NCBI GenBank assembly: GCA_016845225.1
Contig: JAERTB010000016.1
Location: 13,923-77,922, forward strand
DNA: 64,000 bases
Direction of reading: 5' to 3'
Origin: Candidatus Woesearchaeota archaeon
GTDB taxonomy: Archaea > Nanobdellota > Nanobdellia > SCGC-AAA011-G17 > UBA489
The position numbers and the translations under genes were made by a program. The number at the start of each line of letters is the position of its first letter. Within the stretch, counting starts at the first letter, position 1. The notes below the pieces were generated by a model. That model was not told the origin of the DNA. It was given only the letters and a program-made list of their open reading frames with translations, and did no database searches. Shown here piece by piece: positions 1,501 through 64,000 of the stretch.

Positions 1501-2267
1501 ATTCTAAACCTCGCCTTATGCATTCCTTCAAAATATTCTCTAGAATCGTCATCAAAACCTGCATACCATCTTTCTCCGGATCCAATAAACTGGTCGTCAG
1601 GAATTTCTGCTTCAGTTCTTGTGGAGATAGTATATGCCGGATCGTCTAAAACCTTCAACCAATTAACTTGGAAGTTATTTGTTCCGTCAGCTATAACGTT
1701 TAATAAGCTAACTCCTGTAGTAAATGGTACTGGAACAGTTGTAGTGTAAGTACAATCTACATCATTTATGCCTTTAGAAGCACAAATTGAAGTCATAGAG
1801 TATTGAGTTCCTCCAAGACCAATTCCTAATGAGGGAGTTCTAGATGGAGCATTTGTTATTTTAGCATTAACTTGCACATGTAAATTCCCTCCACTAACTA
1901 AAGAGAGAGTATTAATTGAAGTTTTAAGGTTCGAACTACTAAGTGCACAATCTCCTCCACTACAAACATTTCTTGCACCATCATGGAAATCAATACTCAT
2001 GTTGTATCCTGAAGGTAAAAAATCATAAACATTAATATCTGCAAAATTTTCATTTCTTAAAGCATCATCTAACTGTCCACTTTCATCAAACATTGAAATC
2101 ACATCATAACCTCTTTTAATGACCTGAGTTTGTGAAAGGGACTCTCTTGACGTGCTAGTAAAATAGTATGTAGTATTTACAAGCATAATTAGAATAACTG
2201 TTGCTGCAATAGCTCCATCTAAGGCAAAGATTATTCCTTTCTTTTTTCTTAATGGTCTAAGGTTCAT
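1488..2267 (-). CDS. Class III signal peptide (archaeal type IV pilin-like) protein, 259 aa
   Basis: The N-terminus MNLRPLRKKKG|IIFALDGAIAATVILIMLV is a prepilin-type signal. It overlaps its neighbours by 13 and 4 nt, which indicates an operon. Confidence 0.6.
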   Translation of the reverse strand: MNLRPLRKKKGIIFALDGAIAATVILIMLVNTTYYFTSTSRESLSQTQVIKRGYDVISMFDESGQLDDALRNENFADINVYDFLPSGYNMSIDFHDGARNVCSGGDCALSSSNLKTSINTLSLVSGGNLHVQVNAKITNAPSRTPSLGIGLGGTQYSMTSICASKGINDVDCTYTTTVPVPFTTGVSLLNVIADGTNNFQVNWLKVLDDPAYTISTRTEAEIPDDQFIGSGERWYAGFDDDSREYFEGMHKARFRIWLQ

Positions 2268-2824
2268 TGACTAAGTAACACCTCAACAGTCCCATAAACA
2301 TAAGCTGCTCCAGGAGTAGGTTCATACATAACATCTCTTGCAAGATTAACTGAGAATTTTCCTCCTCCACTCATTTTTCCAACTGAAAAAACAACATCAC
2401 TATTCGCATCTTTAATTCTTAAACCAAAATCATATTGGCCTGCATGAAATACTTCCTTTATCTCATCTTCCCCAAAAGCCACGAGGGCAGTAATTTTATC
2501 ATAAGGGATTTTATATTCCTCATCAATTATTCCTATGAAATCAATAGCATCAGAATTAGCTCCTTGTTCTAAAACCAAATAGTCCCAATTATCCGGACTT
2601 CCTGGAGTCTTTAACAACATATCAGATACTTGAAAAGTTTTAACCACAATATCGTCATGATCCATTCGGTTAATTAATCTAATATGGTAAAGGTTCCAAA
2701 GAACAGAAGTAATTGTAATCAACACAATAAATATTCCAATAGCTACAAATAAATCTGTTATTGCGGCCTGTCCTTTTTTTCTTTTGTACATATTAATAAT
2801 CTCCAACAATATAATATTCCACAT
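2264..2824 (-). CDS. Class III signal peptide (archaeal type IV pilin-like) protein, 186 aa
   Basis: The N-terminus MYKRKKGQ|AAITDLFVAIGIFIVLITITSV is a canonical K-G-Q motif plus hydrophobic segment of archaeal prepilins. Confidence 0.65.
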   Translation of the reverse strand: MWNIILLEIINMYKRKKGQAAITDLFVAIGIFIVLITITSVLWNLYHIRLINRMDHDDIVVKTFQVSDMLLKTPGSPDNWDYLVLEQGANSDAIDFIGIIDEEYKIPYDKITALVAFGEDEIKEVFHAGQYDFGLRIKDANSDVVFSVGKMSGGGKFSVNLARDVMYEPTPGAAYVYGTVEVLLSQ

Positions 2825-3503
2825 CTAAAACTTTAACATTAGATTCTAAGTTTATACTTTCAACACTAGTTTTTGCTTGAACTGTGTGTTCTCCAAAAGA
2901 ACTAAACGCTCCAGTAAATTGTAACTCCTCTTCATTAACAAACACAGTTATAACTTCTTCAAAATCTAAATAAATTTTAGTATTTTCATCAAAATATTTT
3001 CCAATAACTACAAAATCAACCTCTTCATTTTCAATAGTTGGCATCCCACCTTGACCTATTGCAGGCACAGGGATTTTAGCAGGGTTGGGATTAACTGTTA
3101 AAATTTCTGGAGCATTGCCAAAGAAAAGTCCATCAGTTGTTTTGATTATCTGAATAATTCCTTCACCTGCACTATCGTCTTCTACAGTTGGCAGTATAGG
3201 CACAGTAATTTCATCTCCCCCAGGAGTTTCAACAGATATTTCATTTTCCACTATTTGATAATCATAATCAGAAGTCACCTTCAATGAGTTTCCAATCCCT
3301 AAATTAGAAACAGTAAATAAAGCATTGGATAATTCAACAGCAGTTTGTACTCTACTTTCAACACCCATTCTTTCATTAAGGTTGTTCATCATAGTCCCAA
3401 TTAGGGGAATAGTTACAATTAACACAAGTCCAACTATTATCAAAACTTCTATTGATCCTCCTTGTCCTTTTTTATTAAATAACACTTTATGAAATTGCCG
3501 CAA
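2793..3503 (-). CDS. Class III signal peptide (archaeal type IV pilin-like) protein, 236 aa
   Basis: The N-terminus ...LFNKKGQGGSIEVLIIVGLVLIVTIPLIG is prepilin-like, and the gene overlaps its neighbours. Confidence 0.6.
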   Translation of the reverse strand: MRQFHKVLFNKKGQGGSIEVLIIVGLVLIVTIPLIGTMMNNLNERMGVESRVQTAVELSNALFTVSNLGIGNSLKVTSDYDYQIVENEISVETPGGDEITVPILPTVEDDSAGEGIIQIIKTTDGLFFGNAPEILTVNPNPAKIPVPAIGQGGMPTIENEEVDFVVIGKYFDENTKIYLDFEEVITVFVNEEELQFTGAFSSFGEHTVQAKTSVESINLESNVKVLDVEYYIVGDY

Positions 3504-3903
3504 TACTCAAGACTCCTTCATTATTACTCACTGTAAACTCCTCACCCATTAAAACATAATTTGCCTTATCAAGGACACCATTAAAAGAACAAATAATTTC
3601 AATTTCACTAGGTCCTCCATCCATCCTGTCTCCCAAAATAATTAATCCAGAGTTTAAAATATTTAATTTATGGCGTGTCTTAAACCAAGATTCATAACCA
3701 TCTCCTAATGTAGCAACTCTTTCCAATGCATTGGACACCATAACACAATCATTTTTCTTTTGTACAGTTTCCCTAGTTCTTTCAACATCTAATTTTTTTG
3801 TGAAAGTTACAGAACTAAGCATAATAAATATCAATAATAAAACACCGACAGAATACATAATCTCGATACTTATCTGGCCTTTTTTTCTCAAATTCATTAC
3901 CAT
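3487..3903 (-). CDS. Class III signal peptide (archaeal type IV pilin-like) protein, 138 aa
   Basis: The N-terminus MVMNLRKKGQ|ISIEIMYSVGVLLLIFIML is prepilin-like. Confidence 0.6.
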   Translation of the reverse strand: MVMNLRKKGQISIEIMYSVGVLLLIFIMLSSVTFTKKLDVERTRETVQKKNDCVMVSNALERVATLGDGYESWFKTRHKLNILNSGLIILGDRMDGGPSEIEIICSFNGVLDKANYVLMGEEFTVSNNEGVLSIAAIS

Positions 3904-4319
3904 GATATGTCCACCGCACTTTCATTTACACTCTTAACCTTAAGATGGTAAGTTCCAGAGTCAGAAGGAATTGTTCCATAAATTAGAGGTTTAACTCCTG
4001 CATGAATATCTGAAATTCCTCCTGCAAATTCAATCTGTAATAAAATCTCACTTGCACCTGTCGCCACATCATTAACCAACGCAGCAGTCTTAATTCCCTT
4101 AGGAGCAGTAATCACCACAATTTCCATAGAATCTGGGCCCATGGAATGAACAGCATCTACGGCTTTAGACAACCTACTAACATAACTTTCCAATTGGCTA
4201 TCTCTAATTGCATTATTAGTTTCAACAGTGGAATAATGCACTAAAGGAATAAGAAAAAATAATAGAAGTCCAGTTAGGATAACATATTCTATTCCTGCCT
4301 GTCCTCTTTTTTTCACCAT
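3897..4319 (-). CDS. Class III signal peptide (archaeal type IV pilin-like) protein, 140 aa; first gene of pilin operon
   Basis: The N-terminus MVKKRGQ|AGIEYVILTGLLLFFLIPLV is a textbook archaeal prepilin signal. An AT-rich promoter region lies upstream at 4320-4430. Confidence 0.65.
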   Translation of the reverse strand: MVKKRGQAGIEYVILTGLLLFFLIPLVHYSTVETNNAIRDSQLESYVSRLSKAVDAVHSMGPDSMEIVVITAPKGIKTAALVNDVATGASEILLQIEFAGGISDIHAGVKPLIYGTIPSDSGTYHLKVKSVNESAVDISW

Positions 4320-20708: not shown

Positions 20709-22139
20709 ATGGCAAAAGAATCCAAAGAAGGAATTACAGTAAAGAAGAGCGAAAACCTTTCTGAGTGGTATAATCAAGTTGTTCAAAAAGCAGAGCTAGC
20801 AGATTATAGTGCAGTAAAGGGATGCATGGTAATTCGTCCTCATGGATATGCAATATGGCAAAAAATTCAAGAATATTTTAATCAAGTATTAAAAGAAAAT
20901 AAAGTAAAGAATTCTTACTTTCCATTATTTATTCCAGAATCATTTTTTAAAAAAGAAGCAGAACATGCTGAAGGCTTTTCACCAGAAGTTGCATGGATTG
21001 AAAACAAAGACAAAGATACTAAAGAAAGATTAGCAGTAAGGCCTACATCAGAAACAGTAATGTATGATTCTTATTCAAGATGGGTTCGTTCGTGGAGAGA
21101 TCTTCCATTAAAAATTAACCAGTGGGCAAATGTAGTAAGATGGGAAACTAAAGCAACCAAATTATTTCTAAGAACAAGAGAATTTTTATGGCAAGAAGGG
21201 CATTGTGTTTATGCGACAGAAGAAGAATGCGATAAAGAAACACAGTTATGGATTGAAGAATACAGAAAATTATCAGAAGACTTACTAGCAACCCCTGTTT
21301 TAGTTGGTAAAAAAACAGATGTAGAAAAATTCTCAGGAGCAGATTACACATTAACGATTGAATCAATTATGCCTGATGGAAAAGCATTACAAGCAGGAAC
21401 TTCACATAACCTGGGTCAAAGTTTTGCAAAATCCTTTGGAATTTCTTTTTTAGATGAAAATTCAAAAAAACAACTTCCTTGGCAAAATTCATGGGGAGTA
21501 TCTACGAGGTTAATTGGAGGATTAGTTATGCTTCATGGAGATGATAAAGGTTTAGTCTTACCTCCAAGAATTGCACCAATACAAGGAGCAATAGTGCCCA
21601 TTTTCTTTGAAAAAACAAAGAAAGAGACATTAAAAGAAGCAAAGAAGATTTATAATTCACTTAACAAGCATTTTGATGTAGAATTAGATGATAGAGAATA
21701 CCAATCGGCAGGTTGGAGATTTAGTGATTGGGAATTAAAGGGAGTTCCCATTAGAATTGAATTAGGACCAAAAGATATTGAAAAACAACAAGCAGTATTA
21801 GTTAGAAGGGATACTGGTAAAAAAGAATTTGTGAAACTAAAGGATGTTTCTAAAAGATTTGAAGAATTACTAGAAGAAATTCAAGATAATCTTTTATCAA
21901 ATGCAAAGAAACAAATGAAATCACAAATCATTGATGTTAAAAACAAAAAAGAACTAACAAAAGCAATTAAAGAAAATAAAGTTGTTAGAATGAATTTCTG
22001 TGGAACAAAGGAATGTGAAGAGAAAATTAAAGAAGATACTAGTGCTACAAGCAGATGCATAATTAAAAAAGCAAAAGGAAATTGTGCAAATTGTGATGGA
22101 GAAGCAAAAGAACAAATATACTTCTCTAAATCTTATTAA
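20709..22139 (+). CDS. proS: Proline--tRNA ligase (archaeal/eukaryotic type)
   Basis: Class II motifs are present (RPTSETVMYDSYSRWVRSWRDLPLKINQWANVVRWE; FLRTREFLWQEGH). A C-terminal Zn-binding domain ends in Y. The length is 476 aa. Confidence 0.9.
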   Translation: MAKESKEGITVKKSENLSEWYNQVVQKAELADYSAVKGCMVIRPHGYAIWQKIQEYFNQVLKENKVKNSYFPLFIPESFFKKEAEHAEGFSPEVAWIENKDKDTKERLAVRPTSETVMYDSYSRWVRSWRDLPLKINQWANVVRWETKATKLFLRTREFLWQEGHCVYATEEECDKETQLWIEEYRKLSEDLLATPVLVGKKTDVEKFSGADYTLTIESIMPDGKALQAGTSHNLGQSFAKSFGISFLDENSKKQLPWQNSWGVSTRLIGGLVMLHGDDKGLVLPPRIAPIQGAIVPIFFEKTKKETLKEAKKIYNSLNKHFDVELDDREYQSAGWRFSDWELKGVPIRIELGPKDIEKQQAVLVRRDTGKKEFVKLKDVSKRFEELLEEIQDNLLSNAKKQMKSQIIDVKNKKELTKAIKENKVVRMNFCGTKECEEKIKEDTSATSRCIIKKAKGNCANCDGEAKEQIYFSKSY

Positions 22140-24187
22140 AATAAGTTTCCAATCCAATTAAAGATTCTACCGTACCAAGGAACATTTTTAACAATAATGT
22201 GTAATGCTTTCTGCTCAACATATTTCATTCCAAGTTCATCTCTGTAACTTACTTCAAATTTAATATCGCTCAATAATTGTTTTCCCTGAGTATTTATTGT
22301 AATAGTTCTAACTTCTCTTTCTTTAAAAGTTTCATAACTCATTTCACCAAATTCAAACTCAATCAACAAATCATTCACATTTGTATTTGAACTTACATCG
22401 AAACTTATCTCTACATCTTCTTTATAGTTAACCTCGGCAGGTTCTGGGTTACTTATTCTTATTTCGGGAATAGGGATAGCAGAAACATCAATATAATGAT
22501 ATTTAGCCTTATTATTGCCCTCAACAATCAAGGGAATTCTCATACCTGTAGTAATATCATAGTCTTTAATTAATACTTCTTCTTCTCCAGATCCCAAAGA
22601 AATAGTCTGACAATCATCCAAGAAACAAGCCTCAAAAGTTATTTTATTGCTTGCTAAATTTTCTAAATTACATTCAATTCTAGCAACATCGCCAGCATAA
22701 TAAGTTTTTTTATTAGTGCTACAATCTACAGCAATCTCCTCAAAACTTTCTTTTTCAGCTCTATCTCTATGGGCTTCAACAATTGCTTCTGCAAATTCTT
22801 TAGAATAAACATCCATCTCATCCCCATATTTAATGGTTCCAGAATCGGTTTCTCCATACATGCTGTTAATTTCAAAAGTAGTAGTATAAACATAGTCTGG
22901 ATCCGCCTCAGGAATTTCAACAATCCAATAAACAGATTTTTCTTCTTTAGGTTCTAATAAAACTCTTCTAACATTACTTTCAGTTAAATCTGGAGCTTTA
23001 GTTACAATTAATTTAGTAGACATATAACTATTCTGTAAATTTTTTATTTTAACTTCTACTGGAACATAACTTCCAAATCCAACTTCACTCTTAACAGGTA
23101 AAACTTCCAACACAACTGCGCCTGCTTTTTCTCCTCCAACACTAACCTCTTTAGTTTTAATATCTAAACTTCCAACATCTAAATCAATTCCGTTAGCTTT
23201 CCAAGAATATTTTGCAGTTGGACTTCCAGAATCAGGATCATCCTTTAATTTGATGTGAGAAGGGTCTAACCACCCATATTCTCCAAAAGTAACATCAAAA
23301 GGAACCCATCCATATTCAGGGAAATAAACCTCTGCCCACCCGTGTGGCCCCCAATCATATCCTATGTTACTATAAACCATTCCAGAAACAAATCTCGCAG
23401 GAATTCCAACAGAACGTAAAAATGAAATAAATAAGTTAGTCATTTCATCACAAACTCCTTTTTTATTTTCTAAAACCCAAGAACTTGGTTGAACAGCTTC
23501 TGCAGTTAAGGTAGTAAGATTATAATTGATGTTTAGATTAGTCCATTCAGCAACCTTGAAAACAGCAGAGTATAAATCATCATCAGTACCAATAATTTCT
23601 TCAGCCTTTCTTTCTATTTTTGTATTAATATCAATAAACTCCGTTGGTCTAGTAAACGTAAGAACTGTCGCATCAGTTTTTATTAATGGAAATTTAATTT
23701 TTTCTTCAACTCTAAATAAATCATTAGTAACTTTTATTTTTGCAGTATATCCATAATTTAATTTATTTCCATTTGTCTCTTGCCACAAATATAATATTTC
23801 TTGACTTCCCTGTTGAACACTTGCATCAGGTGTAGAAAAAATATCTAAATTTTGTACATTCTGCCTTTCATCATTTCTAGGAAAAAAAGAAACATCACTT
23901 TTAATAAAATCAATCACATAATCAGAATCCAAATAATTAACAGTAATGTCCGAAGCAACTTCCAACTCCATTTCTACATACTGGACTTCATTGTAGTTTT
24001 CAACTTGTTCTCCTAAAACACTACTAGAAAATAATATTAATAAAACAACCAAAATCCCTCTAAATCTCATAGATTCTCCCATTAAACTAGATTTAAATAG
24101 TTTTAGATTAATAATAAAATATATAAGTGAGCTAATCAAAAAAATTAATAGAAAGAGGTAATAAAAATGGAATTTTTCATGAATCAC
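22136..24187 (-). CDS. Secreted transglutaminase-like (Cys-His-Asp) domain protein
   Basis: A transglutaminase-like core is seen as KGVCDEMTNLFISFLRSVGIPARFVSG...GPHGWAEVYFPEYGWVPFDVT. A signal-like segment MRFRGILVVLLILFSSSVLG begins at internal Met codons (24082 or 24070), which may be the true start. Confidence 0.6.
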   Translation of the reverse strand: MIHEKFHFYYLFLLIFLISSLIYFIINLKLFKSSLMGESMRFRGILVVLLILFSSSVLGEQVENYNEVQYVEMELEVASDITVNYLDSDYVIDFIKSDVSFFPRNDERQNVQNLDIFSTPDASVQQGSQEILYLWQETNGNKLNYGYTAKIKVTNDLFRVEEKIKFPLIKTDATVLTFTRPTEFIDINTKIERKAEEIIGTDDDLYSAVFKVAEWTNLNINYNLTTLTAEAVQPSSWVLENKKGVCDEMTNLFISFLRSVGIPARFVSGMVYSNIGYDWGPHGWAEVYFPEYGWVPFDVTFGEYGWLDPSHIKLKDDPDSGSPTAKYSWKANGIDLDVGSLDIKTKEVSVGGEKAGAVVLEVLPVKSEVGFGSYVPVEVKIKNLQNSYMSTKLIVTKAPDLTESNVRRVLLEPKEEKSVYWIVEIPEADPDYVYTTTFEINSMYGETDSGTIKYGDEMDVYSKEFAEAIVEAHRDRAEKESFEEIAVDCSTNKKTYYAGDVARIECNLENLASNKITFEACFLDDCQTISLGSGEEEVLIKDYDITTGMRIPLIVEGNNKAKYHYIDVSAIPIPEIRISNPEPAEVNYKEDVEISFDVSSNTNVNDLLIEFEFGEMSYETFKEREVRTITINTQGKQLLSDIKFEVSYRDELGMKYVEQKALHIIVKNVPWYGRIFNWIGNLF

Positions 24188-50841: not shown

Positions 50842-51483
50842 TTAAATTAAGCTATAAATGCCTAATAAAGCCAATAAAATTAAAGCAGCCCCAACAACCC
50901 TAAAAATAATTCTAACAATCTTTTCTGTAATTTTTTCTCTATTTGCTTTAACAACAAAAATCATTCCTACAGAACCTGCAAAAATTCCCAAACCTGCAAA
51001 AATAGAAAAAAGTACAACACTAAATAAACTTCCCAAATTAATAAAATCAAATGAAATAAGTAATGCTGCAATTGCAGACCAACTTAACATAATACTTGGA
51101 TTTAATGCAATCATCATTGCACCAGTGATAAAAGAACCTTTAACATCTTCGTAAGTTGCTTGAACAAATGTTCTCTTCATTCTAAATGATCTAATAGATA
51201 AAAAGTAAGCGCCAACAACTAAAAATATCAAAGAACTCAGTCCCCTTATCCACAAATTAAAATTAGCTGAGCCCCGAACAAATATTCCTATAACACTTAT
51301 TCCTAAACCACAATAAAGGGCCTCCATCAAAGAAGTTCCAAAACTCATTGCAACACCTTCAGTATGTTTTCCATTCAATGCACGATGAAGGATTAATGAT
51401 GAAGCGGGACCTAACACAGGGATAATTGCCCCAAAGAAACCAACAAAAAAAGAAAGTAAAGAAATGTTAAGGCTGTTTATCAT
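50842..51483 (-). CDS. LysE/RhtB-type small exporter
   Basis: A roughly 210-aa, 6-TM layout consistent with the LysE/RhtB superfamily. Confidence 0.5.
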   Translation of the reverse strand: MINSLNISLLSFFVGFFGAIIPVLGPASSLILHRALNGKHTEGVAMSFGTSLMEALYCGLGISVIGIFVRGSANFNLWIRGLSSLIFLVVGAYFLSIRSFRMKRTFVQATYEDVKGSFITGAMMIALNPSIMLSWSAIAALLISFDFINLGSLFSVVLFSIFAGLGIFAGSVGMIFVVKANREKITEKIVRIIFRVVGAALILLALLGIYSLI

Positions 51484-54687: not shown

Positions 54688-54773
54688 GTGGGTGTCCCAT
54701 AGTCTGGTCAATTGGGCAGGACTTAAGATCCTGTGACTTAGTGTCTACGAAGGTTCGAATCCTTCCACCCACA
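54688..54773 (+). tRNA. tRNA-Leu (anticodon UAA), long variable arm
   Basis: It has acceptor GTGGGTG/CACCCAC, anticodon stem CAGGA/TCCTG with loop CTTAAGA, a 15-nt variable arm TGACTTAGTGTCTAC, T-arm GAAGG-TTCGAAT-CCTTC and discriminator A. The length is 86 nt. Confidence 0.8.
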
Positions 54774-55208: not shown

Positions 55209-55280
55209 GCCACCGTAGCTCAGTGGTAGAGCACTACATTGGTAATGTAGAGGTCGCGAGTTCAAGTCTCGTCGGTGGCT
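55209..55280 (+). tRNA. tRNA-Thr (anticodon GGU)
   Basis: It has acceptor GCCACCG/CGGTGGC, D-arm GCTC-AGTGGTA-GAGC, anticodon stem CTACA/TGTAG with loop TTGGTAA, and T-arm GCGAG-TTCAAGT-CTCGT. The length is 72 nt. Confidence 0.8.
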
Positions 55281-55863: not shown

Positions 55864-56451
55864 TCAAAGGTAATTCTTTCTTTCCATTCTTTCTCTTATT
55901 TGTTTAATAGTTACACAAACATAAGTGCGAGACTTATCCAAAACATCTGCAATATCTATATTTTTATAACCTAAAAGTTTCATATCTAATGTCAATAGTT
56001 TAGAAGGATTTAAACCATAAACCAAATCGTCTAAAGTTTCTTTAGCACACATAACATCAAATCCTGAGGGTGTTTTAAAATCTTCCAATACATAGGCTGA
56101 TTGTTCTGGGTTAAATTCTTCAGAATTTATGTTTGTAGAGTAAGTTTGAGGTTTATTTTCTAATCTCATGTATTTAGTCAAAACATCTCTGATTCCAAAA
56201 TCAATATGCATTCCTGCAAATTTTCTAAATGTTAGTCCTCTATCCTCTTCATATTTTCTTGCAGCTTTAAGCAATCCATCAATTGCCCCATCATAAAATT
56301 CTTCATCAGAAATTTTATAGAATCTGCGACCATATCTTTGAGAAATAGTTTCTGCCAAATTTAATAAATAATCTTTATCATTTTCAATTATTTCTTTTTC
56401 ATCACTAGTAAGGACCCTATTGCCTATTCTTTCCATATACATTTTAAACAA
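55864..56451 (-). CDS. Sigma-70-family-like protein (region 2 plus region 4 HTH), 195 aa
   Basis: DGAIDGLLKAARKYEEDRGLTFRKFAGMHIDFGIRDVL aligns by eye with sigma region 2.2-2.4 (EGNIGLMKAVEKFD..RG.KFSTYA..WI...I). The C-terminal LTLDMKLLGYKNIDIADVLDKSRTYVCVTIKQIRERM fits a region-4-like HTH pattern. Confidence 0.5.
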   Translation of the reverse strand: MFKMYMERIGNRVLTSDEKEIIENDKDYLLNLAETISQRYGRRFYKISDEEFYDGAIDGLLKAARKYEEDRGLTFRKFAGMHIDFGIRDVLTKYMRLENKPQTYSTNINSEEFNPEQSAYVLEDFKTPSGFDVMCAKETLDDLVYGLNPSKLLTLDMKLLGYKNIDIADVLDKSRTYVCVTIKQIRERMERKNYL

Positions 56452-56515: not shown

Positions 56516-57004
56516 ATGGAAAATTTCAAAGAAAAATACAAAATATTGCGAGAAAAATACAATTTGCCATCATATGAAGAGTTAGATAAGAATTTTGAAA
56601 TATTAAACTCAAAACCGGTAGTAGAGGTTTCTTTTCCGTTAGCAGTGGTAAGGAGAAGAATGTGTGAAAAACTATCCTGGATATCTTCAGGAATTCAAAA
56701 TATTATTCAACCAAATCCTTCTTCCTTAGTATGTATAGAGGAGTCCTCTTTTTTTACAAAAGAAGAAAAGAAAGAAAGATTAATCAAATTATTAAAAGAA
56801 TTAATGTATTTGATAAGGAAATCAATAGATTTAGATATAGATAATTCAGAAGAAAAAGATGCAGAATACATAAGTGAAACATTCAACAAATGGAATGAAT
56901 TAAAACATAAAATAAAAGAATTTAGTAAAAAGATGAAAGATGGTTGGAAAAAGGAAGTAAAAGTTTCTAAAAAACCAAAAACTAATCACAATTACTTAGG
57001 TTAG
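56516..57004 (+). CDS. Hypothetical protein
   Basis: A 162-aa K/E-rich ORF with no recognisable domain. Confidence 0.35.
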   Translation: MENFKEKYKILREKYNLPSYEELDKNFEILNSKPVVEVSFPLAVVRRRMCEKLSWISSGIQNIIQPNPSSLVCIEESSFFTKEEKKERLIKLLKELMYLIRKSIDLDIDNSEEKDAEYISETFNKWNELKHKIKEFSKKMKDGWKKEVKVSKKPKTNHNYLG

Positions 57005-57041
57005 CCAAAACCTTAATAAATTTAGATTTGACTATATAATC

Positions 57042-57641
57042 ATGAAAAAGGGGCAGGTATATCTTTTAGCAGTAATTATTATGGGATTTCTAATCTACAC
57101 AATGTTACTTCCAGTTAATTTTCTAAAAACTTCAGAAATAGATGACGATTTTCAAGAAATTTCAAAGAATTATCAATTAGAAAGTGCAAAACTTCTAAAT
57201 GAATTATTAAACACTCAAAACTTAAATCAAGATTTTGTTGAAGGAAGGTTTCTTAATTTCACTGTAGCATTTACATCTTACTCCAAATCAAAAAATCCTA
57301 ACTTCGGATTAGTTTATGCATTTCCTTTCAACAATAAAGTATTTTTAGGAAATTACGCAGATTCTCCATTAAATTATACTCAAACAGATCAAATACAAGG
57401 ATGTTTGTCAGATGTAACTGCAGCAATATCTTTATTGGGTATAGATGTATCCTCTCCAGACATAGATGTGGGCACCTATACCGATTGCATGACTTCAATA
57501 ACCTACCCTTTAAATGACAAGTTAGATTTAATCTTGGACAACTCAGAATATTCATTCACACTTTCAGATTCAACTTCAAACTTAATAATAATTAACAAAG
57601 AAAGCATTGAAGGAGATGTTAAAATCTTCATAAGTGAATAA
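57042..57641 (+). CDS. Class III signal peptide (pilin-like) protein, 199 aa
   Basis: The N-terminus MKKGQ|VYLLAVIIMGFLIYTMLLPV is prepilin-like. Confidence 0.55.
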   Translation: MKKGQVYLLAVIIMGFLIYTMLLPVNFLKTSEIDDDFQEISKNYQLESAKLLNELLNTQNLNQDFVEGRFLNFTVAFTSYSKSKNPNFGLVYAFPFNNKVFLGNYADSPLNYTQTDQIQGCLSDVTAAISLLGIDVSSPDIDVGTYTDCMTSITYPLNDKLDLILDNSEYSFTLSDSTSNLIIINKESIEGDVKIFISE

Positions 57642-58119
57642 AAAAACTAATAAACAAAATAAAACACTAAATAACATGCAAAAAAACAAAAGAGGAGTTT
57701 CACCAGCAATAAGTTGGATATTGTTAATAGGATTTACAATGGCTTTAGCAGGTTTTTCAATGACTTGGATGAGAGAAACAGCATCATCAACTTCTGAAAA
57801 AATGGTAGATAATGTGGGTTCTGATTTAGAATGTGGAGATGTTTCAATAAATGCATACGAAGAAACTTCAACAACAACAGGTTGTTCAAAAGTAAACATC
57901 ATCAACAGAGGTTTTTTCACAGTCACTGGTGTAAAAGTTAGATCCGGAAGTGGATTAGAAGAAATTACTCAAGAAATAAAACCAACACAAGAAGCATTAA
58001 TAAATCCAACAATAAGTAGTTTTTTACCAAATAATGAAATAGGAATCATTCCACAAATATCTTATAAAGATTCAAATCTAGTTTGTATAAATAAAGAGGT
58101 TAGAATAAAATGCACATAA
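57634..58119 (+). CDS. Archaeal type IV pilin (Pilin_N-type N-terminus)
   Basis: QKNKRG|VSPAISWILLIGFTMALAGFSMTW matches the archaeal pilin/flagellin N-terminal domain. The true start is probably the internal MQKNKRG at about 57676. Confidence 0.65.
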   Translation: MNKKTNKQNKTLNNMQKNKRGVSPAISWILLIGFTMALAGFSMTWMRETASSTSEKMVDNVGSDLECGDVSINAYEETSTTTGCSKVNIINRGFFTVTGVKVRSGSGLEEITQEIKPTQEALINPTISSFLPNNEIGIIPQISYKDSNLVCINKEVRIKCT

Positions 58120-58568
58120 CTAAAAAGGGAGTTTCACCATTAATCGCAACAAGTATTCTAATTGGTTTCGCAGTAGTTATTACTACTATAGTAATCCTTT
58201 TTGGAGGAGAACTAATTGAAGAGATTCAGCAAAAACAAGGGAAAACATTAACAAAAACAATTCAGTGCGATAACATGCATTTCAAAGTTACAGATATTAT
58301 TAACGATGATATTTGGTTATTGAATGATGGAACTACAGATATTCACGCATTTATGTTAAGATACAAAGGAGATGATGCAGAATATGTAAATTCCCATCTA
58401 AAAACCACAATCCCTGCAGGAGGATCAGGAAAAATAACTGCTGCAACTCCTCCAGGAATAGGAAAATTAAACACATTAACAATTTTTGCTAAAAGTGCGG
58501 CAGGGCCAGAAGGAAGCATTATTTGGGGCACATGCGGGTCTACAGAAACATCTGTAAACTTTCCATAA
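58110..58568 (+). CDS. Archaeal type IV pilin
   Basis: The N-terminus MHITKKG|VSPLIATSILIGFAVVITTIV is pilin-type. Confidence 0.7.
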   Translation: MHITKKGVSPLIATSILIGFAVVITTIVILFGGELIEEIQQKQGKTLTKTIQCDNMHFKVTDIINDDIWLLNDGTTDIHAFMLRYKGDDAEYVNSHLKTTIPAGGSGKITAATPPGIGKLNTLTIFAKSAAGPEGSIIWGTCGSTETSVNFP

Positions 58569-58619
58569 CAGTAAACTTTAATAATAACAAATAGTAAAAA
58601 TTAAACGAGGTAATTAACA

Positions 58620-59084
58620 ATGATTAAAAACAAAAGAGGAATTTCACCATTAATCGCAACAGTTCTATTAATTGGATTCGCAGTAGCTCTAGCAGCTGTA
58701 GTAATGACATGGGGCCTAGACTTCATTAAATCAACAGCAGACACAACAGAGCAACAAACTGAAAACACTTTAATTTGTGCAACTGAACTTTCTTTTGCAA
58801 TATCTAACGTAGATCTTATCACAGGAACAGTTACAGTAGATAATCGTGGACAAGTAGATATTAACAGTTTAGCATTTAGGGTTTATAATGCATCAGGCGT
58901 AACAACTAATGTAACTACAGAAACAATTGCAAAGTTTGAAGTTAAAACTTTAACTCCTACAATTACTGGTTCAAATTTAATAGGTTCAGACGTAACAAAG
59001 GTTGAAGCAATTGCAACAGTTCCAGGAAGTTCTGGACAAGGTGACATAATCTGTTCCCAAAATTTGCAATCATATCAAATTTAA
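58620..59084 (+). CDS. Archaeal type IV pilin
   Basis: The N-terminus MIKNKRG|ISPLIATVLLIGFAVALAAVVMTWG is pilin-type. It is a paralogue of the 58110 gene. Confidence 0.7.
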   Translation: MIKNKRGISPLIATVLLIGFAVALAAVVMTWGLDFIKSTADTTEQQTENTLICATELSFAISNVDLITGTVTVDNRGQVDINSLAFRVYNASGVTTNVTTETIAKFEVKTLTPTITGSNLIGSDVTKVEAIATVPGSSGQGDIICSQNLQSYQI

Positions 59085-59126
59085 GTTTAATGGAGTAATC
59101 ACTCCATTTTTTCTTTTTATTTTAAC

Positions 59127-59663
59127 ATGACTATTAATTCCAAAGAAAAGCAAGGCCAAATATGGATTTCTGCAATTCTATTTTTATCAATTGGAGTTAT
59201 GATTATTGTATTAATACTTTCAGCAATTATGCCAGTAGTAGATAGATTAGCAGATAGAAACACTCTTTCCTCAACAAAGAATCTTTTACTAGAAATGGAT
59301 GAAACAATTAAAACAGTTGCAAGAGAAGGGCCAGGCAGTCAAAGAAACTTAGATATCACTCTAAACAAAGGAGAATTATACTTCCAAAATGATACCTATC
59401 AAATTAAATGGATCATGGAAACAGAGTCAGAAATAATGGAAAAAGGAATAGATATTCCTGAAGGAAACATAGTGCAACATCTAAATGCTACAAGAGTGGA
59501 TCAAATATCAAACCTAATGCTTTGGATAACCTCAAATAAATACAACACCTCAATCAATTCACAATTTTCCAATCCTTTTACTGGCAAACACACATTAACA
59601 GTAAAACATACAGGAATAATACACCCTAACGACAATCCATTAATTGAATTAAAAATAACTTAA
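59127..59663 (+). CDS. Pilin-like / minor pilin protein
   Basis: The N-terminus KEKQGQ|IWISAILFLSIGVMIIVLILSAIMPV is prepilin-like. Confidence 0.5.
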   Translation: MTINSKEKQGQIWISAILFLSIGVMIIVLILSAIMPVVDRLADRNTLSSTKNLLLEMDETIKTVAREGPGSQRNLDITLNKGELYFQNDTYQIKWIMETESEIMEKGIDIPEGNIVQHLNATRVDQISNLMLWITSNKYNTSINSQFSNPFTGKHTLTVKHTGIIHPNDNPLIELKIT

Positions 59664-59719
59664 TGAGAAACTATTAAAAAAGCCAAAACACAGTATATAA
59701 TTATCAAAAATAGAGGTGT

Positions 59720-61309
59720 ATGGTGGATAATTCAACTAAAAGAGGGTCTTCTGAATCAGTGCCTATTCCGGCAGCAGATTTTGGAATAGAAAAAGCAACA
59801 GAGATACCATCCTTGCCAGATTTCTCAGAAAAAAGAAAAATAGATATCAAATATCCGCTAATCAAACCATATGCTTATGCACATATTCATTGGGATGAAG
59901 ATCAAAAAGAAGTGATTTATGAATTAAAAGAGCCACCATTAAATCTAAAGGAAAAACATGTTCTCAAAGAATTAGAAAAAGGATTAGAAGAATTAATCAA
60001 TATTAGTTTCATTAATATTAAAGATAAAGAAGCAGTAATTTCTTACTTAGAAAAGAATGCAAGAGTTCTATTAGCAGAGTTAGGATTAAAACCGCCAAAA
60101 GAAGTATTCCTAAAATTAATGTATTATATTTATAGGGACTTTGTTGGTTTAAACAGAATTGAAGCATTAATGAATGACTACCATATAGAAGATATTGAAT
60201 GTAATGGTTCAAATTTAGAATTGTATATAGTTCATAGAAAGTATAGAAATCTAAAAACAAATATCACTTTCAAATCCAATGATGAATTAACTTCTTTCGT
60301 TGAAAAACTTTCTCAAAAATGTGGAAAGTATATTTCATATGCTAGTCCAATCTTAGATGGAAGATTACCAGATAAAAGCAGAGTTAATGCAACCTATACG
60401 CAAGATATTTCTTCAAGAGGTCCAACCTTCACAATTCGTAAATTTACTAGTGAGCCTTGGAGTCCAATCAAACTAATTGATGTAAAAACAGCAAGTCCAG
60501 AACTTTTAGCATATTTGTGGATGTTAATAGAGTATGAATCAAACATCGTAGTAATTGGGGGAACAGGTTCAGGTAAAACTTCATTTTTAAACAGTATAGC
60601 CTTCTTTATACCTCCTCAATCAAGAATTGTTTCAATAGAAGATACACATGAATTAAATCTACTACACACTAACTGGTTACCTTCAGTTTCTCGTGAAGCC
60701 ACAGGGGTAGGGACAGAAGGAAAATTCGGAGAAGTTTCATTATTTACCTTACTAAAAGCAAGTTTTAGACAAAGGCCAGACTACGTTATCGTGGGAGAGA
60801 TTAGAGGTCAAGAAGCATTTGTTTTATTCCAGGGAGCTGCATCGGGACATCCCACAATGTGTACTATGCACGCAGAAGATGTTGAAACAATGATCAGAAG
60901 ATTAGAAACTCCTCCAATTAGTTTACCTCCATCATTAGTAGAAACCTTAGATGCAGTTTGTGTAATGACTCAAACAAAAGTAAATGGTAAGGAAGTTAGA
61001 AGATTAAAAAGTGTAACTGAAGTATTGAAAGTTGGTCAAAAATTAGGAACTGTAGAAAAAAATGTTCCATTTATTTGGGATCCAAAAACAGATAAATTCT
61101 TTTTCAAAAAACAAAGTGCATTATTCCAAAAATTACAAAAAGAATTTGGAATGGACGAACAAACAATACAAAAAGAATTTCAAAGAAGAACTACTTTACT
61201 TTGGACACTATATAAAAAAGGAATTTCAGGATATTCAGAAGTACAAAAAATAATCAGTGCTTATTCAAAATCTCCAGAAGAAGTCCTAAGAAGATTTAAC
61301 ATTCAATAA
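59720..61309 (+). CDS. Type IV pilus/archaellum-type assembly ATPase (FlaI/TadA/VirB11 superfamily)
   Basis: Walker A VVIGGTGSGKTSFLNS, Walker B DYVIVGEIRG and His-box TMHA are present, along with an N-terminal FlaI-like domain. The length is 529 aa. Confidence 0.85.
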   Translation: MVDNSTKRGSSESVPIPAADFGIEKATEIPSLPDFSEKRKIDIKYPLIKPYAYAHIHWDEDQKEVIYELKEPPLNLKEKHVLKELEKGLEELINISFINIKDKEAVISYLEKNARVLLAELGLKPPKEVFLKLMYYIYRDFVGLNRIEALMNDYHIEDIECNGSNLELYIVHRKYRNLKTNITFKSNDELTSFVEKLSQKCGKYISYASPILDGRLPDKSRVNATYTQDISSRGPTFTIRKFTSEPWSPIKLIDVKTASPELLAYLWMLIEYESNIVVIGGTGSGKTSFLNSIAFFIPPQSRIVSIEDTHELNLLHTNWLPSVSREATGVGTEGKFGEVSLFTLLKASFRQRPDYVIVGEIRGQEAFVLFQGAASGHPTMCTMHAEDVETMIRRLETPPISLPPSLVETLDAVCVMTQTKVNGKEVRRLKSVTEVLKVGQKLGTVEKNVPFIWDPKTDKFFFKKQSALFQKLQKEFGMDEQTIQKEFQRRTTLLWTLYKKGISGYSEVQKIISAYSKSPEEVLRRFNIQ

Positions 61310-61314
61310 TCAAG

Positions 61315-61497
61315 ATGTCTTTAGAATCAATAAAACAAAATGCTCAAAGCATAATCTCTGCAAATGAAAAATACTCTCAATTAGTTTTAAAGCCAACACA
61401 TGATAAAAAAGAAGCAGAAAAATTAAAAAAATACATCTTAACACTATCTAACACAATTTCTAAACAGTTAGGGGAAGTAAAGAAAGATGTCGATTAG
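61315..61497 (+). CDS. Small coiled-coil protein between ATPase and platform genes
   Basis: A 60-aa ORF that overlaps the next start by 11 nt. It has no recognisable domain. Confidence 0.3.
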   Translation: MSLESIKQNAQSIISANEKYSQLVLKPTHDKKEAEKLKKYILTLSNTISKQLGEVKKDVD

Positions 61498-62773
61498 CGA
61501 TAATGCTCAAGAAATTATTTCTTTAGTTTCCCAATTAGAAAAAGAACTTGTTCCTAAAAAGAAGCACGAACTTATAGAAAAGATAGAAAAAGCGAATCAA
61601 CGAATTCAATCAGAAGTTTCTTCAGAATCAAGACCATTATTATATACAGGAGTAATGGATAAACTTCCAGCAAAATCAACTGCTCCAGAACCTTCTCCAC
61701 CTACACCAGAAAAGCCACATAAGCAACCTGGACCAATTCAAACTAAACAAATTAAGAAAAAGAAAACATCACCAAAAACAAAAAAGAAATTGATGGAAGA
61801 GTTAAAGATTAATCAAGAAGATTTAGAAAAAGCATATCCTAAAAGAAAAACAAAGAGTTCAAAAAAAAGTGACTTCACAGTTTATGTTACAAGTCCTTTT
61901 GGAAAACTTTCAAATCAATTCTTCGGAAACTATGTTTCAAATCTATTCGATAAAAAGAAGCCATTCATCAGAAATTTAGCAGATTCAGTAAGAATATCTG
62001 GAATGCCTATTCTATCAAGAACTTATATCAGTATGATGTATTTCTCTTCATTAGTTGGATCAATGCTTGCAATGTTAGTAGCATTGGTAGTTTCGTATCT
62101 TGCAGGGCTAAGCATTACAATTATGGCAGTATCAATGATTATCTCTCTAATTAGTGTAGGACTTTTAGTATTTCTTGGAATGTATGCATATCCTGCATCG
62201 GAGGCATCAGCAAAATCTAGGGCAATAGACAATGACTTACCTTTCGCAACAATTCACATGGCGGCAGTAGCAGGTTCAGGTGCACAACCCATAGCAATGT
62301 TTAGGTTGTTATTAAAATCTGGAGAATATAAAGGATTAGAAAGCGAAATAAAAAAAATCGTAAACTTAGTTAATCTATTTGGCTATGACCTTTCAACAGC
62401 ATTAAAGAACGTATCATTAAGAACTCCCTCAAGAAGATTTAAGGAGTTATTAACTGGAATTGCATCAACAATTGAATCCGGAGGAAGTCTAAAATCTTAT
62501 CTTAAAGGCGTTGCAGATGAATCGATGACAACCTACAGATTAGAACGAAAGAAGTACGTTGAATCTTTAGCAACATATTCAGACATCTACACAGGAGTTT
62601 TAATCGCAGCACCATTATTATTCATGGTAGCACTTACAATTATAAACATGGTCGGAGGACAAGTTGGAGGATTAGAGGTATCTACTTTAGCATGGGGCGG
62701 AACATTATTGGTTTTACCTATTGTAAATATATTATTTTACATTTTCCTAAACATTTCACAACCTGGAGAATAA
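61487..62773 (+). CDS. Pilus platform membrane protein, TadB/FlaJ-like (one T2SSF domain) with Lys/Pro-rich N-terminal extension
   Basis: After a roughly 170-aa hydrophilic N-terminus (PEPSPPTPEKPHKQPGP; K-rich) come 2 TM, a cytoplasmic T2SSF-like domain (AIDNDLPFATIHMAAVAGSGAQPIAMF), then 2 TM. Confidence 0.65.
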   Translation: MSISDNAQEIISLVSQLEKELVPKKKHELIEKIEKANQRIQSEVSSESRPLLYTGVMDKLPAKSTAPEPSPPTPEKPHKQPGPIQTKQIKKKKTSPKTKKKLMEELKINQEDLEKAYPKRKTKSSKKSDFTVYVTSPFGKLSNQFFGNYVSNLFDKKKPFIRNLADSVRISGMPILSRTYISMMYFSSLVGSMLAMLVALVVSYLAGLSITIMAVSMIISLISVGLLVFLGMYAYPASEASAKSRAIDNDLPFATIHMAAVAGSGAQPIAMFRLLLKSGEYKGLESEIKKIVNLVNLFGYDLSTALKNVSLRTPSRRFKELLTGIASTIESGGSLKSYLKGVADESMTTYRLERKKYVESLATYSDIYTGVLIAAPLLFMVALTIINMVGGQVGGLEVSTLAWGGTLLVLPIVNILFYIFLNISQPGE

Positions 62774-62774
62774 A

Positions 62775-63635
62775 ATGTCAAGATTAAAATTTAAACCAGT
62801 TTATACATTGAGCATATTAGCAGGAGTAATGGTAATTCTTCTTGCAATTAAATTCCAATTTGGAGAAAGATTTTTCTTTCCATTAATCATTTTATCCTTA
62901 GTTGTTTCATCACTTCATTTTTGGATTGATTTTTTTGCAGAACAAAATAGACAAAAATTAATCGAAGTAATGTTTTTAGAATTTATTAGAAATCTTTCAG
63001 AATCAATTAAATCAGGAATTTCTATTCCAAGATCTATTCAAAACATAGCAAAAAGAGATTATGGAGAGTTATCTCCTTACATAAAAAAATTATCTAACCA
63101 GATAGAATGGGGGATACCAACAAGAAAAGCTCTTCAAACATTTGCAGAAGATACAGAGAATAGAGTGATAATAAGGTCAATTTCATTAGTTTCTGAAGCA
63201 GAAAAATCAGGAGGAGATATTACAGACATTTTATCTTCGGTAGTTGAATCTGTAGTAAGTGTTAAACAAATAAAAGAAGAAAGAAAATCCCAAATTCATG
63301 CCCAAGTAGTTCAAGGGTACATAATCTATTACGTCTTCATTGGAATCATGTTAGTCTTAGATTTATGGCTATTTCCCCAATTAACTGGTGTTGAAACCTC
63401 TTCTTCAATTCAGGCAGGGGCAAGTGGTGTGGGTGGAATGGGATTGGCTGGAGCAGGTGGAGGCGCATTAGACATGGGCCCAATATTTCTTACATTAATA
63501 TTAATCCAAGGATTTTTTGCAGGAATAATGATTGGGAAATTTTCAGAGGGAACAATCAAAAACGGATTATTACATTCATTGATAATGATGGTTTCAGCTG
63601 CGCTGATAATTACAACATTAAAGGGAGGAATATGA
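62775..63635 (+). CDS. Pilus platform membrane protein, TadC/FlaJ-like (second T2SSF domain)
   Basis: It has 2 TM, a cytoplasmic T2SSF-like domain (SGISIPRSIQNIAKRDYGELSPYIKKLSNQIEWGIPTRKALQTF) and C-terminal TMs with a Gly-rich loop. It starts 1 nt after the previous stop. Confidence 0.65.
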   Translation: MSRLKFKPVYTLSILAGVMVILLAIKFQFGERFFFPLIILSLVVSSLHFWIDFFAEQNRQKLIEVMFLEFIRNLSESIKSGISIPRSIQNIAKRDYGELSPYIKKLSNQIEWGIPTRKALQTFAEDTENRVIIRSISLVSEAEKSGGDITDILSSVVESVVSVKQIKEERKSQIHAQVVQGYIIYYVFIGIMLVLDLWLFPQLTGVETSSSIQAGASGVGGMGLAGAGGGALDMGPIFLTLILIQGFFAGIMIGKFSEGTIKNGLLHSLIMMVSAALIITTLKGGI

Positions 63636-64000
63636 TTTTAAACAAAAAAGGAATTGGATACGTGGATTGGATTATCAGTATGGGATTATTCATCGTGGTA
63701 GTTTCAATGACATTCATATTTCTTAAACCAGGAGTTACTGCAGAGTTTGAATCTAAAGATCTTTTAGAAATAGTAGAATCTAATTTCCTCGAAGAATATA
63801 CATGGTCTTCAATAAGTATTCCAATTGCAGTACATAAGTTGAATCAAGCAGGAATAGTTTCAAAAATTGAAATAACTGAAAATACTGGAAATCAATGGGA
63901 TGTTAAATCTTATCATTCTAAACATACAACTTTCGCAGTAACCACTAACACACAAACAAACACTGCAACAATAACTTGTAGTCCAGAAGGAGGAATCTGT
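63633..64000 (+). CDS. Class III signal peptide (pilin-like) protein, partial (runs off window end)
   Basis: The N-terminus MILNKKG|IGYVDWIISMGLFIVVVSMTFIFL is prepilin-like. No stop occurs before 64000. Confidence 0.4.

Follow-up and report, generated by a model that had tools for sequence, protein, structure and literature searches.

Surveys of archaeal type IV filaments describe systems in which the membrane platform is encoded by one gene or by two. In System 2 the platform is the product of a single gene; in subsystem 4A the locus 'in some DPANN archaea ... includes two platform proteins' and has its accessory genes on the downstream side, and minimal pili of this 4A or Aap-like type are reported from Thermoproteota, Bathyarchaeota, and some Nanoarchaeota/DPANN. 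System 1 is also reported in some DPANN genomes (Sivabalasarma & Albers 2026, bioRxiv 10.64898/2026.04.22.720090). Two-gene TadC-like components have been reported for clade 1, many clade 2 loci, subclades 4A/H/I/J, and 4B (Makarova et al. 2016, PMC4858521), and the traits of the Epd-like/Tad clade are two single-domain platform genes, a FlaH/TadZ-type secondary ATPase, and a shared ATPase lineage (Denise et al., PMC6668835). Here we describe an operon in a 64-kb stretch of DNA from a Woesearchaeota (DPANN) archaeon (contig JAERTB010000016.1, positions 13,923 to 77,922; hereafter the window) that very probably encodes an archaeal type IV pilus other than an archaellum. Coordinates are positions in the window unless a contig is named, and the operon is on the forward (+) strand, extending from 57042 to the right end of the window. 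Systems of this kind, including DPANN systems with two-gene platforms, are already described in the filament surveys, and the comparisons below concern where this locus falls among them.

Organization and conservation of the operon

The operon contains, in order, five pilin-like genes (p1-p5), a gene for the assembly ATPase, an open reading frame (ORF) of 60 codons (s60), two platform genes (plat1 and plat2), and two further pilin-like genes (p6 and p7). From p1 to p6 the intergenic spacing ranges from -11 to +56 nt with three overlaps, giving a compact operon, and its base composition has no island signature. The part beyond the right edge of the window is seen on contig L032, one of the related, overlapping, or syntenic contigs (L001-L035) that were compared with the window, and which matches it with 0 mismatches across 5355 nt. 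After plat2, contig L032 contains p6 in full (254 residues), p7 (149 residues), and a gene for a 331-residue Cys-rich secreted protein, with convergent and unrelated genes (an RsmB-like methyltransferase and MATCAP) further downstream.

A preliminary description of the region at 57042-64000 had listed a set of ORFs on the + strand, all of which are present, and its account of five upstream genes with class III signal peptides, a VirB11/FlaI-superfamily ATPase, a coupled 60-residue ORF, and two platform proteins with one T2SSF domain each agrees with what we find. Three of the upstream pilins had been assigned the canonical N-terminus KRG/[VI]SP(L/A)IAT; this is appropriate for p3 and p4 (VSPLIAT and ISPLIAT), but p2 has the variant VSPAISW. 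The further pilin-like gene placed at 63633 is present, but starts with the ATG at 63632. The locus had also been called complete, which does not hold, as it is cut by the end of the window with p6 and p7 extending beyond, and has no peptidase gene.

The gene order p1-p5, ATPase, plat1, plat2, p6, and p7 recurs in 13 to 15 independent Woesearchaeota/Nanoarchaeota contigs with ATPase identities of 52-96%, and this recurrence rules out a chance pattern. The closest ATPase, with 96% identity, is on a contig of Candidatus Woesearchaeota metagenome-assembled genome isolate SI072_bin118, and 14 further contigs, assigned to Woesearchaeota, Nanoarchaeota, and the unclassified archaeon GW2011_AR19, encode ATPases with 52-80% identity. 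The family of ATPases and pili to which these belong is very large and is abundant in metagenomic data from Woesearchaeota and Nanoarchaeota. A homologue search with the ATPase returned 4748 of 8000 scored candidates at E<=1e-10, and the best 120 homologues are 58-100% identical; among these 120, every source name that includes an organism is Woesearchaeota, Nanoarchaeota/Nanoarchaeia, or 'archaeon'.

The assembly ATPase

The ATPase gene (59720-61309, +) encodes a 529-residue protein of the FlaI/GspE2/PilB3 type. It matches the Pfam T2SSE domain at 2.5e-31 and the PilB3_C domain (PF23989) at 30.5 bits, above the cut-off of 27, and the ATPase motifs are intact, with the Walker A motif at residues 280-287, the Asp box at 305-308, the Walker B motif at 354-360, and the His box at 376-384. 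Among proteins of known structure in the PDB the strongest similarity is to Archaeoglobus fulgidus GspE2 (365 bits, 4.8e-108, residues 28-524), with lower scores for Sulfolobus acidocaldarius FlaI (256 bits) and for Caulobacter CpaF (145 bits, in the core region alone); identities in the core are 46%, 41%, and 35.5%, respectively. A similar pattern is seen with proteins from plasmid records, where the pilus ATPases of haloarchaea reach about 300 bits, as against 157-172 bits for the CpaF proteins of bacteria. With the NCBIfam models the best match is FlaI at 395 bits (cut-off 550), followed by BasE (201 bits) and TadA (140 bits).

A custom neighbour-joining tree, constructed from 297 core columns with 300 bootstraps, separates the ATPases of a second pilus locus in the window (see below) together with CpaF from a group containing the operon ATPase family, the Bathyarchaeia ATPases, GspE2, and FlaI, with 99% support. 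In these comparisons CpaF is used as a proxy for the TadA/CpaF lineage of ATPases shared by Epd and Tad systems, and the proxy references are the CpaF, TadB, and TadC proteins of a Paraburkholderia plasmid tad locus and the proteins of a Halobaculum plasmid pilus locus. On this evidence the ATPase groups with those of archaeal pili and archaella and not with the Tad ATPase CpaF.

In two Nanoarchaeia relatives the orthologous ATPase is encoded by a single ORF of 1090 to 1118 codons (L014 430-3702 and L015 3513-6869). The L014 protein contains an intein with a LAGLIDADG homing endonuclease after about residue 240 (Intein_splicing 1e-14, LAGLIDADG_3 1e-14), and the same in-frame insertion in the L015 protein suggests that it too is an intein, the Pfam scan having been that of L014. 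A free-standing ORF with a weak LAGLIDADG_3 match is located about 4.5 kb downstream of the operon (L032 9482-10219, -).

The split platform

The two platform genes are adjacent and encode proteins with one T2SSF domain each: plat1 (61487-62773, +), of 428 residues, matches at 8.5e-16, and plat2 (62775-63635, +), of 286 residues, at 7e-13. Alignment with the ArlJ/FlaJ models places plat1 at positions 6-248 of a model with 555 positions, and plat2 at positions 271-541 of the same model and at 190-448 of another with 465. By these alignments plat1 and plat2 correspond to the N- and C-terminal halves of a FlaJ/PilC-type platform, in the normal order. The ArlJ scores of the two proteins are 107 and 60 bits, with cut-offs of 400-570.

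A split platform is found in 13 of 13 Woesearchaeota/Nanoarchaeota loci and a fused one in 13 of 13 loci of Bathyarchaeia, the nearest non-DPANN relatives recovered (ATPase identity 35-38%); in the latter it is a single ORF of 480-593 codons with collinear matches to plat1 and plat2, one of the thirteen being cut by a contig end. The scores of plat1 and plat2 against the corresponding halves of the fused Bathyarchaeia proteins are 83 and 96 bits, and against the fused 679-residue PilC of the haloarchaeon Halobaculum 63 and 68 bits; with the two separate platform proteins that the second locus encodes, they score 28 and 54 bits. Neither protein matches TadB or TadC of the Paraburkholderia tad locus with phmmer, and sequence searches of the PDB with plat1 and plat2 gave nothing relevant. 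From the alignment of the two proteins with the halves of the FlaJ models, the distribution of split and fused loci, and the greater similarity to the fused proteins than to the split proteins of the second locus, the arrangement is best read as a fission of a FlaJ/PilC gene within the Woesearchaeota/Nanoarchaeota lineage, separate from the split that is seen in TadB/TadC and EpdJ/EpdK.

The plat1 protein has an N-terminal extension of about 170 residues (61487-62011) that is cytoplasmic and rich in charged residues and proline (35 Lys/Arg, 20 Glu/Asp, 16 Pro). It is absent from the fused platforms of Bathyarchaeia and haloarchaea, and the length of plat1 among the Woesearchaeota varies from 349 to 476 residues. 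The s60 ORF (61315-61497, +) is situated between the ATPase gene and plat1, with a 5-nt gap to the former and an 11-nt overlap with the latter, and encodes a soluble, Lys/Glu-rich protein of 60 residues whose charge is similar to that of the plat1 extension. It is seen only in L001-L005, at the same position and with 44-95% identity, and is predicted as a gene on L032 too; the one family match is weak (UPF0058, E 0.0025). We considered whether s60 is a duplicate of the plat1 N-terminus, but this was dropped, the BLASTP match being of 11 residues and, at E 0.034, without significance.

Pilins and pilin-like proteins

All seven pilin-like proteins have class III-type N-termini, and each of p1-p6 combines a leader that is short and charged with a [KRQ]G motif and a single hydrophobic helix near the N-terminus. 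Three of them are PilA-type pilins of similar size: p2 (57676-58119, +; 147 residues, MQKNKRG/VSPAISW), p3 (58110-58568, +; 152 residues, KKG/VSPLIAT), which overlaps p2 by 10 nt, and p4 (58620-59084, +; 154 residues, KRG/ISPLIAT). The start of p2 is probably the ATG at 57676, and the GTG at 57634 that begins the ORF as listed wrong, because the orthologues begin at a short leader. The three are paralogous, with E values of 2e-14 for p2 and p4, 2e-11 for p3 and p4, and 9e-5 for the third pair. They score 35.7 (p4), 19.4 (p3), and 17.3 bits (p2) with the archaellin/pilin N-terminal domain model TIGR02537, for which the cut-off is 20, and p4 also has a Pfam Pilin_N match at E 0.044. In a 12-sequence database, hidden Markov models (HMMs) of the p2 family (3e-9) and the p4 family (9e-11) match a protein from a haloarchaeon that is named 'type IV pilin N-terminal domain'. 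The least conserved of the upstream pilins is p2, with 70% identity to its copy on L005.

The predicted structure of p4 is that of a pilin. Its AlphaFold model (predicted local distance difference test score 87.9) has a helix at residues 10-56 followed by an eight-strand beta-sandwich, and the only full-length fold matches are archaeal type IV pilins, namely that of Pyrobaculum calidifontis (8fk7; E 2.9e-3, template modelling (TM) score 0.46-0.50) and PilA1 of Natrinema (9myg; E 0.024); the remaining Foldseek matches are limited to the immunoglobulin-like head. The N-terminus of the p4 family, KKG/ISPLIATVLLIGFAVALAAVVMTWG, is nearly invariant across the loci, and in an alignment of 77 homologues P10, I12, I18, G19, C53, and C145 are invariant. 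Residues from about 5 to 35 are almost identical in L001-L005 and the remainder diverges, and because these roughly 30 N-terminal residues are almost frozen in a protein whose head is diverging, we infer that, of the pilins here, p4 is the one most likely to be the major filament subunit. The two invariant cysteines suggest a conserved disulfide that staples the globular head, and such disulfides are known in many bacterial type IV pilins.

The other four proteins differ from these. The product of p1 (57042-57641, +) is a predicted minor pilin of 199 residues that begins MKKG/QVYLL, so that Gln is at +1, and its one hydrophobic helix, at the N-terminus, follows the KKG motif; its family, with the motif KKG/Q[VI]Y, is present at the same position in L001-L006 and L010. 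It has no Pfam match, and the family profile matches no other pilin here. A second predicted minor pilin is p5 (59127-59663, +), of 178 residues, with the N-terminus KQG/QIWISA followed by a hydrophobic helix. Its family (G/[QDN][IV]W[IV][SE]) is kept directly upstream of the ATPase gene in 12 loci, and the distant orthologues begin G/Q[VI]W[VI]ET, with Glu at +5. By their sequences p1 and p5 belong to families other than that of p2-p4. Downstream of the platform, p6 (63632-64000, +, cut by the window end; L032 4987-5751 in full) has 254 residues and the N-terminus MILNKKG/IGYVDW with Asp at +5; the family motif is G/xxY[VI]DW, also with Asp at +5, and its members, of 233-415 residues, are downstream of plat2 in 10 loci. 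The least conserved gene of the operon is p6, with 64% identity to its L005 copy, and its product is a candidate for a tip or adhesin-type minor pilin. The last of the series, p7, follows p6 on L032 and encodes a protein of 149 residues with the N-terminus KKG/FIKTLEAV, within a family motif of G/[FWY][IL][KR]xxEA. There are weak Pfam hints for p5 (DUF7289, E 0.014) and p6 (DUF7287, E 0.073), and the family HMMs of p1, p5, p6, and p7 match neither the haloarchaeal pilus accessory proteins nor the pilins of the second locus.

The gene for the Cys-rich secreted protein (L032 6234-7229; L005 15121-16113) is directly after p7, and it may or may not be a member of the operon. The protein has no family match except for a faint Cell Wall Hydrolase hint (E 0.035) with the L005 copy.

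A second pilus locus in the window

A scan of the whole window for class III-like N-termini identified six further pilin-like genes at its left end (433-4319, -). In four of their products position +1 is Gln and position +5 or +6 is acidic (KKRG/QAGIEY, RKKG/QISIEI, NKKG/QGGSIEV, and RKKG/QAAITD), and the other two begin KKKG/IIFALDG and SKKG/ILLTLG; faint matches to PF04021 ('Class III signal peptide') are found for two of the six. The locus also includes a 340-residue membrane protein starting at about 372 (-), and it extends off the left edge of the window, where its continuation can be read on L033 (2922-8841), L034 (4994-14052), and L035. There it encodes an ATPase of 481 residues that is 36% identical to that of the operon at 57042-64000, two single-T2SSF proteins (294 and 324 residues), and a KaiC/FlaH-like ATPase (TIGR03880 1e-40, ArlH 1e-10).

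All of the Epd-like/Tad traits listed by Denise et al. (PMC6668835) are present in this second locus, whereas the operon at 57042-64000 has the split platform only. The second assembly ATPase scores 181 bits with CpaF as against 224 with the archaeal ATPases, where the corresponding values for the first are 147 and 300, and members of its family are named 'TadA' or 'CpaF family protein' in NCBI sources. Both TadB (37 bits) and TadC (20 bits) are matched by one platform protein of the second locus. By these similarities the second locus is the more Epd/Tad-like pilus system of the genome. The two loci are about 53 kb apart in the window, and metagenomic data from Woesearchaeota/Nanoarchaeota contain members of both families in very large numbers.

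Relationship to described systems

The operon has the features that are generic to archaeal type IV pili, namely an ATPase of the VirB11/FlaI family, a T2SSF platform, and pilins with class III signal peptides, and two classes of pilus compete for its closest affiliation. Clade 2 or System 2, represented by PilB3/PilC3 and PilA of Haloferax volcanii and by GspE2 of A. fulgidus, is favoured by the similarity to GspE2 and by the PilB3_C domain, the ATPase matching at full length including both the N-terminal and the PilB3-like C-terminal domains. The PilA-type pilins with RG/xSPxIA N-termini are alike in the two, and the Halobaculum locus also has extra pilin-like genes downstream of its platform gene. 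This class differs in that the platform of Halobaculum is one fused 679-residue gene as opposed to the two found here, and no similarity to the accessory proteins of haloarchaea could be detected for p1, p5, p6, and p7. Subclade 4A, the Aap-like pili, is favoured by the Bathyarchaeia loci, which are the closest non-DPANN relatives of the operon, and by the published description of two-platform DPANN loci with downstream accessory genes, which the operon fits; it differs in that no PilY-like adhesin was detected, and in that the Bathyarchaeia relatives have fused platforms.

The preliminary description had instead called the locus Tad/Epd-like, which would make it a clade 1 or System 1 pilus whose split platform was inherited from the ancient fission that produced TadB/TadC and EpdJ/EpdK. 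We regard this as improbable. It does share with the Epd pilus of Methanococcus maripaludis and the bacterial Tad/Flp pili a platform made from two adjoining single-T2SSF genes beside the ATPase gene, the lack of a retraction ATPase, and a presumed role in adhesion; p1 and p5 have Gln at +1 as do EppA substrates, and System 1 loci are reported in some DPANN (bioRxiv 10.64898/2026.04.22.720090). However, nothing beyond the split itself is specifically Tad/Epd-like: the ATPase scores far higher with GspE2, FlaI, and the haloarchaeal PilB proteins than with CpaF (145-147 bits), and it is with the second-locus family that CpaF clusters; plat1 and plat2 have no TadB or TadC match, whereas a second-locus platform protein does; the pilins are long (147-254 residues) with globular domains, with no Flp-like ORF of about 50-80 residues in or near the operon and no PF04021 match in it even at E<=1; and no TadZ/MinD-like or FlaH/KaiC-like ATPase is found in 56516-64000 or in the continuation on L032. 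Moreover, split platforms also occur in clades 2, 4A/H/I/J, and 4B (PMC4858521), so that the split by itself does not place the locus in clade 1.

Source labels raise the further alternative of a motility locus, as Joint Genome Institute names for the homologues include 'archaeal flagellar protein FlaI' and, for p4, 'flagellin-like protein'; the best curated-model matches are indeed FlaI and FlaJ, and class III signal peptides are common to both kinds of filament. An archaellum is nonetheless very improbable, the least so favoured of the alternatives considered here, since the FlaI match of 395 bits is well under the 550 bits required of an equivalog, the platform consists of two proteins that score below the ArlJ cut-offs, GspE2, which is not an archaellum protein, is more similar to the ATPase than is FlaI of S. 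acidocaldarius, p2-p4 match only the N-terminal domain that pilins and archaellins share, and there is no FlaH, FlaF, FlaG, FlaC/D/E, or FlaX in or beside the operon. Somewhat less improbable, but still unlikely, is a short pseudopilus or surface assembly, either bindosome-like or used in the exchange of DNA or cell contents with a host, comparable to Bas, Ups, the bacterial type II secretion system, or Com. Seven different pilin-like proteins around one machinery are more than a simple filament needs, a Cys-rich secreted protein is encoded after the operon, BasE is the second-best NCBIfam match of the ATPase, and the lifestyle of DPANN archaea is generally taken to imply an exchange of material with their hosts. 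Against such an assembly, the pilin-like proteins have no substrate-binding or nuclease domain, the operon has no neighbouring genes for DNA processing, BasE and BasF score far less than their cut-offs of 1000 and 1300 bits, and the conserved helix and variable head of p4 are the pattern typical of a filament subunit.

Several points weigh against the assignment of the operon to a non-archaellum type IV pilus of archaeal type with a lineage-specific platform split. The comparison of clade 2 with 4A is one of similarity and published description and not of phylogeny with clade references, and the tree of the ATPases, made by neighbour joining, is small and includes few references. The fold matches of p4 are statistically weak, with a best full-length E value of 2.9e-3 and a TM score of about 0.5, and a Foldseek search against the PDB gave no match at E<=0.001. 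In p1, p5, p6, and p7 there are no significant family matches, their status as pilins being read from the N-terminal motif and position, and in this genome p5 lacks the +5 Glu of its more distant orthologues and has Gln in place of Lys/Arg at -2. The platform could in principle reflect the opposite event, a fusion in Bathyarchaeia. Finally, no Peptidase_A24 or class III signal peptidase was found, either in the 64 kb of the window or in contigs L032-L035 that flank it.

Processing and assembly

The search of the window for a peptidase consisted of a scan for the GxGD motif together with Pfam searches of all ORFs with at least four predicted transmembrane helices and of many others, and the outcome is in line with the preliminary description, which had also reported no prepilin peptidase in the window. 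The sole unannotated ORF with six transmembrane helices (50842-51483) was considered as a candidate and lacks the catalytic Asp motifs, and no EppA-type peptidase with nine transmembrane helices was seen in the window or its flanks. In archaea the prepilin peptidase gene is often unlinked to the pilus locus. Processing of the prepilins is therefore an assumption in the scheme that follows, as no peptidase was found in the window or the neighbouring contigs.

Drawing on the known biology of the type IV filament superfamily, we propose that the prepilins would be anchored in the membrane by their N-terminal hydrophobic helices, and cleaved behind the [KR]G motif by a class III signal peptidase of the PibD/FlaK type that is encoded away from the operon. 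The hexameric ATPase would dock on a heterodimeric platform of plat1 and plat2, with the pair supplying the two T2SSF domains of one FlaJ/PilC protein, and ATP hydrolysis would raise mature pilins from the membrane into a helical fibre. The paralogous PilA-type proteins p2, p3, and p4 would form the shaft, with p4 the likeliest major subunit, and the unrelated p1 and p5, encoded upstream, and p6 and p7, encoded downstream, may form an initiation or priming complex or a tip complex. There is no retraction ATPase in the operon, and the likeliest role of the pilus would be adhesion to surfaces or to a host cell, a suggestion that follows from the pilus family and from the biology of DPANN archaea.

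Neighbouring genes

The window as a whole has a G+C content of 29-35% and contains four tRNA genes and the archaeal housekeeping genes for TFIIE-alpha, L10e, FtsZ, ATP-dependent DNA ligase, and arginyl-tRNA synthetase. Immediately to the left of the operon, 37 nt upstream of p1, is a gene (orf162; 56516-57004, +) for a soluble, charged protein of 162 residues with no significant Pfam or NCBIfam match. It is directly 5' of p1 in L001, L002, L003, and L005 and is located elsewhere in L004, and it may serve the operon as an accessory or regulatory gene.

To the left of orf162 is a leftwards ORF (55864-56451, -; 195 residues) whose product resembles a bacterial sigma-70 factor of the extracytoplasmic function type over the sigma-2 and sigma-4 regions, matching TIGR02937 at E 4.7e-5 and 23 bits (cut-off 42.9) and having no Pfam match. 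A bacterial-type sigma-70 factor is odd in an archaeon. We considered this ORF as a regulator of the operon and rejected it, as the TIGR02937 match is below threshold and it adjoins the operon in the closest relative, L005, only. Further to the left, 2-3 kb upstream of the operon, genes for tRNA-Leu(UAA) (54688-54773) and tRNA-Thr(GGU) (55209-55280) flank a MazG-like gene.

At a distance of about 18-30 kb from either pilus locus there is a gene (22136-24187, -) for a membrane or secreted protein of 683 residues with a transglutaminase-like core domain (6e-26). Peptidases at the cell surface that belong to the transglutaminase family are linked to clade 1 pilus systems (Makarova et al., PMC4858521).

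Implications for Woesearchaeota

At least one groundwater study reported type IV pilus components to be "missing in DPANN genomes" (bioRxiv 10.1101/2020.05.14.094862), and this is contradicted by the window, which contains one machinery operon and the pilin genes at the start of a second pilus locus in a single Woesearchaeon. Literature searches on pili specifically in Woesearchaeota returned nothing specific. DPANN archaea such as the Woesearchaeota are considered reliant on direct contact with the cells of others, and we know of no cultivated member of this lineage. The operon provides defined candidates, p2-p4 for the shaft and the variable p6, for attachment studies, for the preparation of antibodies, and for the identification of filaments by cryo-electron tomography, and its value is thus practical and not conceptual.

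Two by-products of the analysis are the recognition of a second and more Epd/Tad-like locus in the same window, and the reading of the platform split as, most simply, a lineage-specific fission. The operon is a clean example of why a split platform alone cannot be used to class a system as Epd- or Tad-like. We put at about an even chance the proposal that an independent fission in this operon, alongside a second Epd/Tad-like pilus with a split platform of its own, represents a paired convergent splitting in two mechanistically distinct pili; if this is so, recognition of a host and attachment to it could be shared out between the two pili.

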